From an uncultured Planctomycetales bacterium (GTDB lineage: Bacteria; Planctomycetota; Phycisphaerae; UBA1845; PWPN01): a DNA stretch of 56,675 bases. The stretch is from NCBI GenBank assembly GCA_964615635.1, contig CAZTQK010000002.1, forward strand, positions 1 through 56,675, given 5' to 3'. A program made the position numbers and the translations under genes. The notes beneath the pieces were generated by a model. It searched no databases. It worked only from the letters and a program-made list of their open reading frames with translations, and had not been told where the DNA came from. Below are positions 41,613-51,578 of this stretch, piece after piece. Each line of letters starts with the position of its first letter. Positions within the stretch are counted from its first letter, which is position 1.

Positions 41613-41770
41613 CCGTACGTGTTTGGCGGGCCGGGGTCTGGCTCCTTCTTGCCTGACGCGGTTCGCAGAGTGACCCGGGGAAGGTCAACGAGGCCATCTG
41701 GCACTCTGCCATGCAGGGGAGGCCGCAAGAAGGTGCCTGACCCGCTCTTTTGCACGCTAAACACGTACCG
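41613..41770. repeat. MITE-like repeat, family 2, copy 1 (in the pstS-pstC spacer)
   Basis: CCGTACGTGTTTGGCGGGCCGGGGTCTGGCTCCTTCTTGCC...AAGGTGCCTGACCCGCTCTTTTGCACGCTAAACACGTACCGG. The terminal GTACGTGTTT / AAACACGTAC ends are inverted repeats. A second copy lies at 49975-50131 in the same orientation. Confidence 0.8.
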
Positions 41771-45535: not shown

Positions 45536-45667
45536 CAGCACACGCCTCTTGCATCGCAGACAGGACGCAGGTCGCCTCGACCGTTCGTCCCCGATTGTCA
45601 TTCCCCCCCTTTTGCATCAACCGAGAGAGCCCCTTTTACAAACATTTCATTAATCTGGCGCGACGAT

Positions 45668-45688
45668 CAGATTAGGAACTGGTTAAAG
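45668..45688 (-). promoter_or_regulatory. candidate Pho box upstream of phoB
   Basis: The minus strand reads CTTTAACCAGTTCCTAATCTG, about 135-150 nt upstream of the phoB ATG. It shares the core TTTAACCnGTTCyTAA with the pstS site. Confidence 0.35.
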
Positions 45689-46058
45689 ATACATGCCTTG
45701 CCCTGCCCAAGATCAGATTCCGTTTATCGGACATTGTCATGCCGGGCGGGCAGAACGCAAGTCCGGTGTCCGGGGACGGTTTGCGGCTTGTCCCAACGCC
45801 GGACGGTCCTCCAGGCTTCTGATCGGTCGAATCGACAACGTCCGGGAATAAGTCGTGTGGCAAGACAGGGATGCTGACACTGCCGGCCGCCTTGGGCGGA
45901 CATGGAAGCGACAACTCCGCCGGTGTTTCGGGGCCCGAGAACAAGCGCAAAACAAACCTTCCGGATGGCCGTTTTCGCACCCCGGTAACTTAGGTCCGAG
46001 AAGGCAATGTCCGATTATCTGTGCAGGAACTTCCCCAGGGACGGTGAGGCGTACACGC

Positions 46059-49000
46059 ATGTACAACGAGTTCTACCATCTGACCGAGAACCCATTTTCC
46101 GATTCGATCGACCCGCAGTTTTTCTACGCGCCGAGCGAATACGAGGAAATCCTGTCAACCCTCATCGAGAACGTGGGCCGGCGGCGAGGCGTGTCGATCG
46201 TCACGGGGCCGGCCGGCAGCGGCAAGGATCTGATCGCTCAAGTACTGGCTCAGACGATGGATTACGACAAGAGCCTTCCGATCAGGCTGCGAGCGCCGGC
46301 CAGCCCTCAGGCGCTGCTTCTGAATCTGTGCCGCGGTCTGGGCGTGAGCTGCAGTGCGACGATGTCCGCCGAAAAGCTGCTGCAAAGGGCCGAGCTTCAT
46401 CTGCTGTCACAGCTCAGCCAGCATCGCGACGTGGCGGCGATCATCAATGATGCGGAGGGTATCTCCCGAGAAACAGGCGAGTGGGTCCTCAGACTGGCAC
46501 GTCTCGAGCGAGACGGAAGTCGCCTCCTGCCGGTCGTCCTGCTGGGCAAGCCGGACTTGCAGGAGCGGATCACCGCCGGGGAACTCGATCTTCTCGAAGG
46601 GGAGGTCTGCTGCTGCCGCCAGATTCCGCCGCTGAGTCGGGATCAGACCCGCGACTTCCTCGAATACCGGCTGCGGCTCGCCAACGCCGACAACCCTTCG
46701 CTGTTCACCACCGACGCCGTGCACCTGATCTACGAGGAATCGGGCGGCGTTCCCGGGTTGATCAATCGGATCGCAGAGCAGGCCTTGAAGGACGCGGCTG
46801 CCGAATCGGCGCCCACCGTTGACAGTGAGATCGTCGCCGGCTGCATCGGAAAGGCGATGGCCATGCAATTCGAAGAGATCTTTGATTCATCGCAAGAGGG
46901 ACCCATGGATACGAGGACAAATACCGGTGAGACGTCGTCGGCTGCTCATGACGCGAACGCCTCGGCCGGACAGACGCAGGACTCGGGGCTGGCCGGCGGC
47001 ATTGACCGTGATGCCATCCGCGCGATCACCGAACAGCGGGCACAGGCCCGCATGCTGCTCGACCGGACCATCAAGCAGTGCCGCGAGTTGCACGAACAGG
47101 TCCAGCAGCAGGCTCGCATCGCTGATGCCAAATTGTGCAGCGCCGAGAGTGTCGCGGACTACCTCCGTGATCTGCACAAGGACCTGGCGGCCAACTACAA
47201 TCCGGAAACGCTGCAAACCTTCGATACCAAGAGCCTGCAGTTGCGCGAGGTGATTGAACGCGCCGACCGGCGGCAAGAGGAATTGGGGAGCGCATCGGTC
47301 ACCGTGGAGTCGCTGCGTGACGAAGTCATGGACTGGACTCATCGGGCGGCCGAAGCTCACAGCACGCTGCTTCGTAGTTCGCAGTCGGCTAAGGCCAGAC
47401 AGATCGAGGTCAGCGGCGCTGCCGAGCGGGCCGAACAAGCCCGCGAGACCCTCGAAACGGCGACCCAGACAGCCGTCAGCCTTGTCGATAAGGTTTCCGG
47501 CCTTTCGCAGCGAATCGACGAGCAAACCGCGACCTTCGACCGAAGAATCAGCGAGATGCGACAGGTCGTCGTCGATCTCGAATCGCTATACGAGAAGGCC
47601 CTGGCGCTCACCACCGGGCAGATGGAGTCGGCGACGACACTCGCCCGCCGTATTGATGAGCAGACGCAGGTGTTCAACGATCGGTTAGCGGATGCCGAGA
47701 GCGCGACAACGCGGCTGCTGGATGTGCACGACCGGGCCACGGCCGCGACCAATGAGCAGTTGCAGGCGGGGTCGGAGCTGGCCCAACGCATGCAGGATCA
47801 GACGACGGCTTTCGACAATCGGATGGAGAGCGCCAAGGGAATCGCCTCGGCCCTTGATGACGCCTGTGATCGAGCAGTCGCGGCTGCGGATCGACAACTG
47901 GAACAGGGTGAAGCGCTGGGCCGGCGCATCGACGAACAGACGCAGACCTTTGACAAGCGGGTTGCTGACTCGACGGTGGCCGCCAATCGCCTGGACGAGA
48001 TGCTCCTTGCCTCAGACATGGTGTTCGAGCGGATCGAACAGCAGGCACAGCGACTGAACGAACGAATCGCGGCATCGGACACGGTGGCGGCTCGCATGGA
48101 CGAGCACTACAACCGTGTCGGCCGGGTCGTTGATGAACAACTGCAGACGATCAACAATCTGGCAGGCCGTATCCAGTCGCAGGAGGATGCCCTGGGGGCC
48201 TACATCGGCCAGATGCAAAGCAACATGACGGCATTGAACGAGGCCTACGAGCGGGCCGACGCCGCCAGCAACCGCCACATCGAAGCCGCCGATGCACTGG
48301 CCGCACATGCCCGCGAGTACATGGAAGCGCTTGAAGCGCGCATCAACACGGCTCGTGCCGCGACAGGCCAATTGGAGGAGACCACCGCCCGATCGACCGA
48401 GGCCGTCGCCCGCCAGACGGAAGCGGCCGACGCCATGTCCGCGCGGTTCCAGGAACAGACAGCCGCGCTGAATTCCACCATTCAAAACGCCGGACAGGTG
48501 AGCGAGCAGCTCCAAGACGTTTACGGCAGGCTGTCTTCCAACGCGACGGCACAACTGGATGCCATGAATGCCCTGTCCGCCCGGGTTCAGGAGCGATCGC
48601 AGGCATTCGATGCCCGCGTCAGCGAGAGCCAGGCCGTCGTCGATCGGATCGAGGAAGCTTCGTCGCGAGCACTCGAGGCATCCAACCGACAAATGGAAAC
48701 CGCGAATGACACCCTGCAGCGACTGATGGACCAGACCGCCCGGATCGAATCGTGTATCACGACCGCAAAGGACACGACCGAGCATCTGGCCAACACCTAT
48801 GAGAAGACTTCGGCCAACAGCAGGAGACAGGTCGAAGCGGCCAACGCCCTGATCGACAAGATGCAGGAACAGATGCGAAACCTGAGCACTCAAACCGAAG
48901 ACGCTCGCAGTGCAGGGGAACACCTTGAAACGGTGACCGGTCGCACCACGGAAGCGGCTGCTCAACAGACCGAAGCGGTCAACGCCATGATTGACCGCGT

Positions 49001-49937
49001 GCGGGAGCAGATGGAGAACCTCGCCGGCCAGATCAACGACGCCCGCAAGACCGGCGAACACCTCGACAAGGTTTACGCGCGGGTGACCGAAACGGCCGCC
49101 AGCCAGGTGGAAGCGGCAAACGCCTTGGCCGGCCGGATCGGCGAGCAGGTCCAGGTGTTCGACTCGAAGACGACGGATGCCAGAGCGGTAGCCGATCGTC
49201 TGGACGAGGTGTATGCCCGCGTACAGGCCGGGGCCGCCGAGCAGGCCGCTGCCGCTGAGACGCTGACCAAGAAGATCCGCGAGCAGACGCAGTCGCTCGA
49301 TCGTTGGATCAAGGCTGCCAAGAACGCCAGCGATAATCTGCACGAGGTCTACACGATGACGACCGAAGCGGCCGACCGCCAGCGCGAGGCCGCGCACACC
49401 ATGATGGAGCGCATTCGCGAACAGTCACAGACCCTGGACAACCGAATCGCCGAACTGAAGTCGACCGTCGCGGGAACCGGAGAGCAGATCGATCGGATGA
49501 CGACGCTCACGGCGGAAGCCCGCACCGCAGCCTTCGATCTGTCCTTCAACTTGGCGCAAGTCCAGCAGCACGCGGAACTCGCCGAGGCCAGTTGCAGCAG
49601 CCGGATGCAGGATCTGACCGCCAAGCGAGCCGAAGCCGAGAACCAAGCCTCACAGTTGGAGTCGGTCCTTCGACGAGCTGAGAAGATGGCGACGGAGCTG
49701 CCCGTCCAGTTGGAGGCGTTCTTCGAGGTCCAGAAGCAGGTCGGAATGACGATCGAAACCCTCCAAGGGACCAGTATCCCGAGCGAGACCCGAAGCCGGC
49801 TGGCAGAGGCGGCAGACCGCTCCATCCGAGCGGTCCAGGCGGTCCGGGAAGGCAGCGAACCCCGTCGAGGCGGCGCGGATCGCATGCCGCCCAGCGGCGT
49901 CGCCGGTGAAACACCCACCGCTTCAACGACGATCTAA
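46059..49937 (+). CDS. ExeA/MshM-like AAA(+) N-domain fused to a ~950-aa alpha-helical repeat region
   Basis: Start at MYNEFYHLTENPFSDSIDPQFFY (ExeA-type N-terminus). P-loop TGPAGSGKDL. Also VVLLGKPDLQERI, GGVPGLINRI, then a Glu/Gln/Ala/Arg-rich repeat region. Confidence 0.85.
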   Translation: MYNEFYHLTENPFSDSIDPQFFYAPSEYEEILSTLIENVGRRRGVSIVTGPAGSGKDLIAQVLAQTMDYDKSLPIRLRAPASPQALLLNLCRGLGVSCSATMSAEKLLQRAELHLLSQLSQHRDVAAIINDAEGISRETGEWVLRLARLERDGSRLLPVVLLGKPDLQERITAGELDLLEGEVCCCRQIPPLSRDQTRDFLEYRLRLANADNPSLFTTDAVHLIYEESGGVPGLINRIAEQALKDAAAESAPTVDSEIVAGCIGKAMAMQFEEIFDSSQEGPMDTRTNTGETSSAAHDANASAGQTQDSGLAGGIDRDAIRAITEQRAQARMLLDRTIKQCRELHEQVQQQARIADAKLCSAESVADYLRDLHKDLAANYNPETLQTFDTKSLQLREVIERADRRQEELGSASVTVESLRDEVMDWTHRAAEAHSTLLRSSQSAKARQIEVSGAAERAEQARETLETATQTAVSLVDKVSGLSQRIDEQTATFDRRISEMRQVVVDLESLYEKALALTTGQMESATTLARRIDEQTQVFNDRLADAESATTRLLDVHDRATAATNEQLQAGSELAQRMQDQTTAFDNRMESAKGIASALDDACDRAVAAADRQLEQGEALGRRIDEQTQTFDKRVADSTVAANRLDEMLLASDMVFERIEQQAQRLNERIAASDTVAARMDEHYNRVGRVVDEQLQTINNLAGRIQSQEDALGAYIGQMQSNMTALNEAYERADAASNRHIEAADALAAHAREYMEALEARINTARAATGQLEETTARSTEAVARQTEAADAMSARFQEQTAALNSTIQNAGQVSEQLQDVYGRLSSNATAQLDAMNALSARVQERSQAFDARVSESQAVVDRIEEASSRALEASNRQMETANDTLQRLMDQTARIESCITTAKDTTEHLANTYEKTSANSRRQVEAANALIDKMQEQMRNLSTQTEDARSAGEHLETVTGRTTEAAAQQTEAVNAMIDRVREQMENLAGQINDARKTGEHLDKVYARVTETAASQVEAANALAGRIGEQVQVFDSKTTDARAVADRLDEVYARVQAGAAEQAAAAETLTKKIREQTQSLDRWIKAAKNASDNLHEVYTMTTEAADRQREAAHTMMERIREQSQTLDNRIAELKSTVAGTGEQIDRMTTLTAEARTAAFDLSFNLAQVQQHAELAEASCSSRMQDLTAKRAEAENQASQLESVLRRAEKMATELPVQLEAFFEVQKQVGMTIETLQGTSIPSETRSRLAEAADRSIRAVQAVREGSEPRRGGADRMPPSGVAGETPTASTTI
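47502..49538 (+). repeat. 15 tandem, in-register 46-residue (138-nt) coding repeats within the ExeA-like gene
   Basis: In ORF-track numbering, units begin at residues 550, 596, 642, 688, 734 (this unit is 35 aa), 769, 815, 861, 907, 953, 999, 1045, 1091, 1137 and 1183. Each unit opens with L/M-x-x-R-I/M/V-x-E/D-Q, for example LARRIDEQTQVF, LGRRIDEQTQTF, MIDRVREQMENL. Confidence 0.8.
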
Positions 49938-49974: not shown

Positions 49975-50131
49975 ACGTACGTGTTTGGCGTGCTGGGGTC
50001 TGGCTCTTTTTGCCCAAATGCGGTTCGCCGTGCAATCTGGAGTGGTTGGCTCAGTCAGGCGGGGGCTTGGCGGCGCGAAAAAGACGGCAAAAAGTGCCTG
50101 ACCCGCTGTCTTGCACGCTAAGCACGTACGG
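49975..50131. repeat. MITE-like repeat, family 2, copy 2
   Basis: ACGTACGTGTTTGGCGTGCTGGGGTCTGGCTCTTTTTGCC...AAAGTGCCTGACCCGCTGTCTTGCACGCTAAGCACGTACGG. It starts 38 nt after the stop of the ExeA-like gene. Confidence 0.8.
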
Positions 50132-50218: not shown

Positions 50219-50833
50219 TCAGTTGTGCCGGCCGTGGCCGTTAACCGGTTTCGCGGGCCGGGACGGGCCAGGGGAGCGACCGATTTCCACGATCGACTGC
50301 GTTTTCAGGATCGTGTAGTCCGCAGGGAATACATGGAACGACTGCACGTGCAGCTCCCGATCTCGGGCTTCATAGTCGATGAACGTGAACGGCACGAGCT
50401 CGTCACCCTGTGCCCATTCGGCAAACCGAACAAGCATCCCTCGCGTGCTGGCATACCTCACAAGGTCGCGGTGCGAAGCGTGGAAAAGATTCTGAGTCAT
50501 CCGTTCGACCTGGGTCGAGAGGATGTACTTCATGCCGTCGTCGAAATCCTCGACATGGTCGCGTTCACCCCGAAACTGGAACGAAGTCACAAGTCCATTC
50601 TGGGGAAGGACTTCCAGATCGTCGGTCGTTGCCTCGGTAACGCAGCGCGAGTCGGCCTGTACGGTGACCGCGTGCGAAAGCCCCATCACCCAGATGTCGG
50701 CCGAGTACGCGGGCCGCTCCAGGTGCCTGCTCTCATGAATGTGAAACAGCTCCGGGTGGAGCCGGCGGCGGTACAACACAAACTTGGCGTCCGCCACGCG
50801 CTGCAATGTTTGGCCCAGTTCCACGTTATCCAT
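50219..50833 (-). CDS. conserved-looking hypothetical protein
   Basis: Start at MDNVELGQTLQ. 204 aa, globular composition (FVLYRRRLHPELFHIHE...), no signal peptide. No motif I can name with confidence. Confidence 0.55.
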   Translation of the reverse strand: MDNVELGQTLQRVADAKFVLYRRRLHPELFHIHESRHLERPAYSADIWVMGLSHAVTVQADSRCVTEATTDDLEVLPQNGLVTSFQFRGERDHVEDFDDGMKYILSTQVERMTQNLFHASHRDLVRYASTRGMLVRFAEWAQGDELVPFTFIDYEARDRELHVQSFHVFPADYTILKTQSIVEIGRSPGPSRPAKPVNGHGRHN

Positions 50834-51578
50834 TCCTTCGAGATACCCCTGTCTCAATCGAAGCCGCGCGCCATGCGCGACCTTTACCCAGTTCACCACC
50901 CTGAGCAAACAGAACACTCAGCCTGCCATCTCTCAAAAAGGGATGGTGAGCGCCGCCTCTAGCTCTCCTCAAGCTACCCACCGCGGCGGCTACTCCCTCC
51001 TCGTAGGCGGGGGTGGGCTGGATTTCGATCGACGCGCATTATAACTTGCTGTGCCGCCGAAACCAAGAGAAAAATCGTCGAAATCAACTTTTTACCCGTT
51101 ACCACCCCGGCGGGCTATCTATATATTTTGTACGAAGTTAGAGTTAGATTGTTGCACCCTAATCTGGCTTTCTTTCAGATTCTGATCTACTGAGATCGGC
51201 CAGCAAATGACGGCCATGCGTCAGGGAGTGAATATGGAATAATTATCGGTCTTGGGAAAGATTCGCTCTGGTCATTCTTCCGCGCCCCGACAATGCAACG
51301 GTGCTCACCAGTCGGACTGGCGCTGCAAGCTGGCTGAGGGGTCTGGCTGTGAACCGGAGCTGGCGGTAGGTCCTTCTGGTCAGGTGGCTTCGTTTCGGGC
51401 GCACGTGTTGCCCGCGGAGGGGGTGTATACCTTCGGGCTCAGCGCGCAAGGGCCTGTGAGAACACAACCGTTGGACCACTGTGGACACCTGCGGCACAAA
51501 CGACGGCCTCACTCTTCGAATCGACGCCAGGGGGGGCTCTACTCGCCAGAAACTGACCACGCATGATCGGGTAGACGT

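Follow-up and report, generated by a model that had tools for sequence, protein, structure and literature searches.

Which part of a protein carries its function when an ATPase domain with altered catalytic motifs is fused to a very long repetitive tail? The question is raised by a gene of 1292 codons in the window, by which we mean the whole 56,675-nucleotide stretch of DNA analysed here, from an uncultured bacterium of the Planctomycetales (class Phycisphaerae). The original prediction, made from the letters of the DNA, took the first ~270 residues for a domain laid out like ExeA and much of the remainder for an array of 46-residue units, perhaps a scaffold or ruler-like filament. ExeA-type ATPases are accessory to type II secretion and to the MSHA pilus. 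We consider it fairly probable that the gene encodes a soluble, cytoplasmic coiled-coil rod and that the rod carries the function, with a head that is, as part of the same reading, a catalytically dead relic of an ExeA-type AAA+ domain. The rod, not the ATPase, appears to be the functional part because the head has lost catalytic residues and two sister species have deleted it. The parts of the gene are as follows.

46059-49937, + strand: the rod gene, 1292 codons plus stop, encoding a predicted pseudo-ATPase head, a linker and a coiled-coil rod; no internal stop on translation
46059-46844, + strand: residues 1-262, AAA+ domain of the ExeA/AAA_22/TIGR03015 type, catalytically degenerate (Pfam, NCBIfam, AlphaFold2)
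46206-46229, + strand: residues 50-57, Walker A motif GPAGSGKD, with the lysine kept and the Ser/Thr magnesium ligand replaced by Asp (T57D; family alignment)
46434-46457, + strand: residues 126-133, Walker B region AAIINDAE, with Asp130 to Asn and Glu131 to Asp relative to hhhhDEAQ (family alignment)
46746-46769, + strand: residues 230-237, GVPGLINR, with the near-invariant Arg233 of G(I/L)PRLINQ replaced by Gly (family alignment)
46845-47012, + strand: residues 263-318, acidic linker rich in Ser, Thr and Gly, predicted to be disordered (predicted local distance difference test, pLDDT, <50 in AlphaFold2; ratio of nonsynonymous to synonymous substitution rates, dN/dS, 0.3-0.8)
47013-47501, + strand: residues 319-481, proximal non-repetitive coiled-coil segment (74-81% identity and dN/dS 0.13-0.18 in the genus; helical in AlphaFold2)
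47502-49538, + strand: residues 482-1160, repeat array of 14 units of 46 aa and one of 35 aa, 679 aa in all (self-comparison, Fourier analysis, AlphaFold2)
49539-49808, + strand: residues 1161-1250, distal coiled-coil segment (C-terminal alignment, dN/dS)
49809-49934, + strand: residues 1251-1292, basic C-terminal tail rich in Gly and Pro, isoelectric point (pI) 9.4, predicted to be non-helical (AlphaFold2, composition)

Comparisons within the genus draw on four genomes, that of the window (G000, a metagenome-assembled genome) and three others (G001, G002 and G003), which are 70, 98, 90 and 99% complete, respectively. Each of the other three holds an orthologue of the rod gene in conserved synteny. 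The start assigned to the window gene (MYNEFYHLTENPF, encoding MYNEF...) agrees with the N-terminus that is conserved across the family (MY..F.L...PF).

The ExeA-like layout of the N-terminal domain is borne out by profile matches and by the predicted fold. Residues 42-170 match Pfam AAA_22 (E 1.1e-12; 48.8 bits against a cut-off of 27), and positions 1-262 of the 269 in the NCBIfam profile TIGR03015 are covered (E 9.8e-34), at a score of 117 bits that lies below the curated cut-off of 324.5. An AlphaFold2 model of the head, built from a 46-sequence alignment (pLDDT 89; predicted template modelling score, pTM, 0.84), finds its best Foldseek matches among initiator-clade AAA+ proteins, namely ORC/Cdc6, TnsC and MuB. 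The AAA_22 score of 49 bits compares with 88-103 bits in relatives, and in ungapped alignments with 25 and with 45 of these the family motifs GxxGxGKT, hhhhDEAQ, LLQ(V/I)VLLGQP and G(I/L)PRLINQ correspond to GPAGSGKD, AAIINDAE, LLPVVLLGKP and GVPGLINR in the window protein. The P-loop had therefore been read correctly, with Asp where Ser or Thr is expected, but Walker B had not: it was described as DA rather than DE, and the ungapped alignment, which sets hhhhDEAQ over I-I-N-D-A-E, makes it an Asp to Asn and a Glu to Asp change. Several Gln and Asn residues of the sensor region have been lost as well.

The extent of this decay is best seen in a leave-one-out count over 44 positions, those with conservation of 90% or more among the other 45 sequences. 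The window head retains 28 of these and has replaced 16, whereas the other sequences retain 97% on average and 87% at the minimum. Two further heads from the genus are similarly eroded, that of G002 (29/44) and that of P0004, a 276-aa fragment 86% identical to the window protein (30/44). Other members of the clade to which the gene belongs, L099, L100 and L101 among them, retain 43-44 of the 44, the exceptions being G014/L104 (36/44) and an N-terminally cut open reading frame (ORF) in G004/L103 (29/44). In a maximum-likelihood tree the stem leading to the window gene and G002 measures 1.86 substitutions per site, against 0.04-0.85 for the clade's other branches. With 16 of 44 positions replaced and the whole domain deleted in two sister species, nucleotide binding by the window head is doubtful; the earlier suggestion of nucleotide binding without normal hydrolysis was right about the degeneration of the motifs but understated how far it has gone.

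Within the genus the head occurs in several states. That of G002 is full length, with the motifs GKS, IIDDAE and IPGMINR, and P0004 likewise has a head, with GKD and ISDAE. In G001, G003 and a metagenome contig (L105) the whole AAA+ domain is gone, removed by a ~770-bp deletion with a common junction: the first ~27 codons (MYKKF...) remain, up to a TGA, and then join to the equivalent of window position ~46830, with CGCCG(A/G)G microhomology at both breakpoints. The head-less product is 1024 aa long, its predicted start being an internal Met that is equivalent to residue ~270 and sits in the linker. We rejected an artefact of metagenome assembly, as the deletion is present in two species and in one independent metagenome contig. 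The remnant in the head-less species forms a 30-codon ORF whose TGA lies a few bases ahead of the new ATG, a spacing suggestive of translational coupling or re-initiation. Because flanking genes place G000, G001 and G003 about equidistant from one another and G002 outside them, a single deletion in an ancestor of G001 and G003 is possible. The three extant heads (window, G002 and P0004) share H28Y, A74P, E131D, Q133E, N148R, K155R, Q158P, Q181G and R233G, and decay would thus have begun in the ancestor of the genus and gone further in the branch of G000 and P0004.

The rod has been held under stricter selection. Between G000 and G002, dN/dS is 0.33 in the head and 0.12-0.26 in the rod; along the rod it spans 0.04-0.26 in pairs with the window genome, 0.04-0.28 in the four pairs with a head-less species and 0.04-0.38 over all five pairs, values that are rough because synonymous distances are near saturation. 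Both rod ends, residues 319-481 and 1069-1250, are the most constrained parts, the latter with dN/dS of 0.04-0.12 in every pair, head-less pairs included. Length is conserved too: residues 269-1292 of the G000 protein and the proteins of G001 and G003 are each exactly 1024 aa, with zero indels at 75-80% identity. Array length thus does not vary among these three species, and insertions of 22 and 40 residues in G002 are the only changes to it in the genus. The 40-residue insertion (L093) is made up of the short tandem motifs AQAFDTR, AKAFDTR, AQAFETR and ARSFETC. Since the whole domain has been deleted while the rod stays under purifying selection, these comparisons indicate that the head is dispensable, at least in the two head-less species.

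The array itself conforms closely to what had been described: all 15 units, 14 of them 46 aa long and the remaining one 35 aa, are in register. Units start at residues 482, 528, 574, 620, 666 (the 35-aa unit), 701, 747, 793, 839, 885, 931, 977, 1023, 1069 and 1115, and the mean BLOSUM62 self-score at offsets of 46, 92, 138 and 184 is 0.82, 0.73, 0.57 and 0.57, compared with a maximum of -0.19 in 200 shuffles. The consensus is LAxRIQEQTQALDxRIxDARxAxxxLxEVYxRATAAAARQxEAANA; an opening motif had been claimed for each unit, which holds for the array but is degenerate in units 747 and 885. Hydrophobic residues or Ala occupy positions 1, 5, 9, 12, 16, 19, 22/23, 26, 29/30, 33, 36/37, 41 and 44, so that the 46-mer comprises 13 core positions, equal to six heptads plus one four-residue stutter, and the hydrophobicity Fourier spectrum shows one sharp maximum, at 3.54 (46/13), and lacks power at 3.67. 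The few Gly and Pro residues stand at no fixed position. The 35-aa unit (residues 666-700) is a 46-mer minus 11, with three helical turns lost and the hydrophobic seam roughly kept.

The array is also old. Tandem Repeats Finder detected no period-138 array in the DNA, and units within the protein share on average 45% of nucleotides (maximum 63%) and 28% of amino acids (maximum 57%), whereas the protein sequences of units that correspond in position across species are 67-79% identical. The array must therefore predate the genus, and a recent duplication or assembly artefact, which the divergence of the DNA copies had already spoken against, is rejected. So are three other interpretations of the repeat. 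An apolipoprotein- or perilipin-type 11/3 amphipathic repeat is excluded because the hydrophobic period is 3.54 without power at 3.67. A discrete helical hairpin per 46-mer conflicts with the lack of a fixed Gly/Pro turn and with predicted helices that cross several units. Membership of a known repeat family was likewise discarded, as the Pfam and NCBIfam matches to the rod (DUF948, at 21 bits against 37, SMC, Rad50, Fib_alpha and ATG17) are all sub-threshold coiled-coil noise; a PDB sequence search gave no match.

In an AlphaFold2 model of residues 299-1292, computed from the window and L105 sequences, the rod is almost pure helix (segment residues 17-967), as had been expected of the array, with helices of ~100-180 residues that run through several units. 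At a helix rise of 0.1485 nm per residue, the array would extend ~100 nm and the whole helical part ~140 nm. No transmembrane segment was found (the highest 19-residue Kyte-Doolittle mean is 1.15), and a Pfam scan and hydropathy analysis of the protein revealed neither a signal peptide nor a peptidoglycan-binding domain (PF01471), the latter absence having been noted before. The most conserved part of the protein, residues 1069-1250, consists of the last two repeats and the distal segment, whose motif around AELAEASC...QDLTAKRAEA...L...RAEK.A.EL can also be made out in other genera. The rod is probably a parallel coiled coil of two or three strands, which may bundle further.

A giant tail on an ExeA-type head had been regarded as exceptional. 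This proved true of the 46-residue period, which is specific to the genus, and not of long tails as such. A word-indexed search with residues 1-290 returned nothing and one with the full-length protein two relatives, reflecting a limit of the word index and not absence; an exhaustive HMMER search with the head yielded 20,854 relatives, and lengths of 700-2500 aa are common among the best 150. The tails of these proteins, in which Ala, Glu, Arg, Gln and Leu abound, nearly all lack a transmembrane segment and have periods of 91, 81, 40, 35, 18 or 14. Taxonomic distribution was surveyed in 80 loci returned from a scan of species-representative genomes. Long tails occur at 16 of the 21 loci from Planctomycetota (Phycisphaerae, Planctomycetales), the other five being stand-alone heads of 270-342 aa. 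Members from Omnitrophota, Verrucomicrobiota and Acidobacteriota are mostly stand-alone proteins of 270-360 aa, and those of Gammaproteobacteria mostly have the classical form of 510-640 aa, with PG_binding_1 confirmed in both that were scanned. The fusion of an ExeA-type head to a coiled-coil tail of 700-2300 aa forms two sister clades, found only in Planctomycetota among the genomes sampled. Clade 1 (12 rows, support 100/100) includes the window gene and that of G002; clade 2 has support of 100/98. Literature searches on ExeA with coiled coils and Planctomycetes, on the 46-residue repeat and on TIGR03015 brought up no paper about this rod-protein architecture; those on PEP-CTERM, exosortase and ExeA gave PEP-CTERM papers, none of them on it, and Haft 2006 does not mention the ATPase.

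Outside the window's genus, clade 1 has a putative membrane partner from an undescribed protein family. In five other genera an ORF of ~200 codons abuts the 3' end of the clade-1 gene or overlaps it by a base, and encodes two N-terminal transmembrane helices, an acidic linker and a conserved C-terminal domain without a match in a Pfam scan. The partner ORFs are the following.

L015:12798-13445: two-transmembrane partner
L100:15726-16376: two-transmembrane partner
L101:11563-12198: two-transmembrane partner
L103:4740-5327, - strand: two-transmembrane partner
L104:11336-11941: two-transmembrane partner

A profile search of 41 genomes recovered the partner in G004, G005, G013, G014, G015 and G017, which are genomes with a clade-1 gene (in G019 that gene runs off its contig), and nothing in the 30 genomes without a match of clade-1 level. 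The same profile found nothing in G000-G003 at E <= 1, its positive control being 5/5 for the other genera. Nothing beyond the partner is conserved around clade-1 genes in the loci examined. Clade-1 relatives also carry ~45 extra residues near the C-terminus that have no counterpart in the window's genus, in a region where the alignment is moderate, and in other genera their ATPase motifs are intact (L099, L100 and L101). The G014 orthologue (L104:8405-11335) has a natural Glu to Gln change in Walker B (D-Q-V-E), the classic ATP-trap substitution, and retains the partner gene, so hydrolysis may be dispensable in more than one lineage.

These observations suggest a history for the rod gene. The clade-1 ancestor would have been a long rod with an ATP-dependent, oligomerising head, and the small partner would have tethered it to the inner membrane. 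In the window's genus the partner would have been lost and the head would have decayed stepwise, with E131D and R233G arising in the genus ancestor, then T57D and the change of D130 to N or S, and finally full deletion in one branch. What would remain is a rod of ~100 nm (array) to ~140 nm (all helix), its exact length and phase kept and its ends held most strictly. Such a protein is most likely a cytoplasmic structural scaffold or tether that acts via its conserved end segments, and any head that is retained is most likely no more than a non-catalytic knob for oligomerisation or docking. The scaffold or ruler-like filament originally envisaged is in keeping with the coiled-coil anatomy and with a length of 1024 aa, free of indels, in three species, although the wide variation in tail length across the family argues against a universal ruler.

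Several points weigh against this reading. The head has a dN/dS of 0.33 and an intact P-loop Lys in both G000 and G002, so it is not in neutral drift and may still bind nucleotide or play some other part. The AlphaFold2 model of the rod is of low confidence (pLDDT 53, pTM 0.26) and so is no reliable guide to tertiary arrangement, to the number or orientation of strands, or to filament formation. Long-range charge zones drive myosin-like or intermediate-filament-like packing, and the rod is acidic (pI 4.9) with no such zones obvious on shallow inspection. The window's genome is only 70% complete, so that the evidence for the partner's absence comes chiefly from the other three genomes (90-99% complete). 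Finally, 'scaffold' is a weak functional statement.

The strongest competing explanation is that the head is a working nucleotide switch, in which binding of ATP or ADP without hydrolysis would lock or tune an oligomeric state, much as in Walker B Glu to Gln trap mutants, and through it the bundling of the rods; in the head-less species this control would have passed elsewhere. Purifying selection on the head, retention of Lys56, a fold predicted at high confidence and the G014 protein, which keeps both the domain and the partner despite its altered Walker B, all speak for it. We nevertheless judge it unlikely: Thr57 to Asp and Asp130 to Asn remove both Mg2+ ligands, Arg233 and several Gln/Asn residues of the sensor region are lost, and full deletion of the head is tolerated in two species with conserved rods.

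We find it improbable that the rod protein is an accessory factor of polysaccharide export or secretion, which would have to act at a distance on an unlinked export locus. The nearest curated family of the head is the XrtA/PEP-CTERM-associated ATPase, and clade 2, the sister of clade 1, is divergent from a polysaccharide-export operon in all 12 loci with enough flank. This operon encodes a Poly_export/SLBB protein, a ~580-aa protein, an AAA_31 tyrosine-kinase-like ATPase, a FemAB-like acetyltransferase and a GT1 glycosyltransferase. Two export loci are present in G000, but both already own an ATPase paralogue. One is a clade-2 protein with a coiled-coil tail of >1100 aa and all five operon neighbours adjoining (G000:C236:1-9779; L096), and the other a short ExeA-type ATPase of 360 aa (G000:C116; L097). 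BLAST with the five operon proteins found nothing in the 20-kb stretch of the window and all five beside the C236 gene. Clade 1 never adjoins such genes in the loci examined, and the rod protein has no transmembrane segment, peptidoglycan-binding domain, live ATPase motifs or membrane partner. Consistent with the original prediction, the neighbours of the rod gene include neither a GspB/ExeB-type partner nor genes for secretin-dependent secretion.

The neighbourhood of the gene raises another explanation. As had been reported, the rod gene is divergently oriented to phoB and is followed by a miniature inverted-repeat transposable element (MITE)-like sequence; the orientation relative to phoB-phoR is the same in all four genomes of the genus. 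In the window a DUF2617 gene lies further downstream. The flanking non-coding features are these.

45983-46058, + strand: leader block of ~75 nt just 5' of the ATG, ending GGTGAGGCGTACACGC-ATG; conserved in 4/4 genomes of the genus
49975-50131, no strand assigned: MITE-like element, 38 nt past the stop codon; a second copy lies at 41613-41770

The leader block is more conserved across the four genomes than the coding sequence, for example in GGCA(A/G)TGTCCGATTATGTGT and GGTGAGGCGTACAC(G/A)CATG, and the block and the first ~27 codons are retained in the head-less species. It probably includes promoter or leader sequence and may hold a ribosome-binding site in GGTGAGGCGTACACGC-ATG; an Rfam search with the conserved leader gave no match. 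In the phoB-proximal half of the intergenic region (45602-45900), further blocks such as TTAGGAA(T/C)TGGTTAA and GGACATTGTCAT are kept in 4/4 genomes and may be the phoB promoter or Pho boxes.

A Pho-regulon protein, which would share a divergent control region with phoB-phoR beside the pst operon and form a starvation-specific structure, could account for the synteny in all four genomes and for the conserved intergenic blocks. The synteny, however, is limited to one genus, and the orthologues of other genera have other, unrelated neighbours. Conservation is strongest in the proximal leader of the gene itself and not in a shared Pho box. An association beyond the genus was rejected, since the histidine kinase that adjoins the G013 orthologue shares only 27% identity with PhoR. 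This idea, which has slim prospects, a shade slimmer even than those of the export factor, concerns regulation and is compatible with a cytoplasmic rod. Least credible of all, and contradicted by the selection data, is a decaying gene without remaining function: the lost catalytic residues, the lost partner gene and the head deletions of sister species would agree with it, but a frame of 1292 codons stays open in a 62% GC genome, rod dN/dS is 0.04-0.26 in window-genome pairs and 0.04-0.38 in all five, the three species that differ at 20-25% of residues have zero indels in 1024 aa, and the upstream leader is conserved.

The two MITE-like copies (~158 bp) have a mean column identity of 82% over their aligned stretches, with termini GTACGTGTTTGGCG ... 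GCACGCTAA(A/G)CACGTAC. A weak terminator-like hairpin at 49992-50004 falls inside the copy that follows the rod gene. The convergent gene beyond it (50219-50917, - strand) encodes a DUF2617 protein (Pfam E 1.8e-12) that is 91-93% identical and syntenic in G001 and G003; it was not found in the examined stretch of G002.

What would a head-optional rod mean? The genus amounts to a natural dissection, with an intact P-loop and altered Walker B in G002, both Mg ligands gone in G000 and P0004, and no head in G001, G003 and L105. This series suggests that the conserved function of the rod in the genus is independent of ATP hydrolysis and, in two species, of the head as well. The cell biology of Planctomycetota is unusual, and few of their cytoskeletal or scaffold proteins have been described. 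A bolder version of the rod reading, which we put forward only tentatively, sees in the rod an autonomous cytoskeletal element of Phycisphaerae that forms filaments or acts as a tether, and that belongs to a new class of bacterial coiled-coil cytoskeletal proteins. If so, the class would be defined by a super-repeat of 46 residues (six heptads plus a stutter) and would have arisen from an ATP-driven, membrane-anchored AAA+/coiled-coil machine by losing its anchor, then catalysis and then the motor domain, each stage of which living species would preserve. The strictly phased repeat also offers a clean model of a stutter-containing coiled-coil super-repeat. New here are the dead head, the deletion series, the loss of the partner and the 46-residue array.

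How does the rod protein compare with known systems? The best curated match to its head is the XrtA/PEP-CTERM ATPase of TIGR03015, from which it differs in score (117 vs 324.5 bits), in the loss of catalytic residues and in having no polysaccharide or exosortase genes nearby. The long-tailed planctomycetal ATPases of the export loci (clade 2) share the same head and a long coiled-coil tail without a transmembrane segment and are sisters to it in the tree; the rod gene, unlike them, stands in a separate clade (100/100) that pairs with the two-transmembrane protein and not with the export operon. Within that clade, the rod protein has the grouping of the head and the long tail with the C-terminal motif (for which the alignment is moderate), but neither the abutting partner gene nor the intact ATPase motifs. 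The 46-residue array is absent from every other family member examined.

With ExeA, GspA and MshM the rod protein shares a homologous N-terminal AAA_22-type domain, at ~30% identity to gammaproteobacterial members, and its relatives pair with a small membrane protein in a way reminiscent of ExeA-ExeB. Proteins of the ExeA type measure 520-640 aa and have a transmembrane segment and a periplasmic PG_binding_1 domain; the rod protein has neither, is predicted to be cytoplasmic, carries a rod of ~1000 aa and dead motifs, and lacks a GspB-like partner or secretin context. The head also resembles pseudo-ATPases of the AAA+/P-loop type, whose fold is kept while Walker and Arg residues are lost, and its structural neighbours are of the ORC/Cdc6 type. 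Non-catalytic AAA+ subunits are known, for example some ORC subunits, a comparison of principle only that implies no orthology. Complete deletion of the dead domain in sister species is unusual for structural pseudo-ATPases.

The remaining comparison is with Scy, FilP and crescentin, which are long, nucleotide-independent coiled-coil rods without transmembrane segments. The Scy/FilP repeat measures 51 residues. The rod protein is similar in its predicted features: it has the long uninterrupted heptad-based rod of coiled-coil and intermediate-filament-like proteins, with a period of 3.54, few Gly or Pro and AlphaFold2 helices of 100-180 aa. It bears no sequence relationship to them and differs in its period of 46 with 13 core positions and in its descent from an AAA+ fusion. 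Scy and FilP have a long non-heptad super-repeat (Walshaw et al. 2010, PMID 20178847, as cited in PMC6599971), and FilP self-assembles into filaments (PMC6599971). By analogy, the role of the rod protein is probably closest to that of bacterial coiled-coil-rich or intermediate-filament-like proteins such as Scy and FilP.

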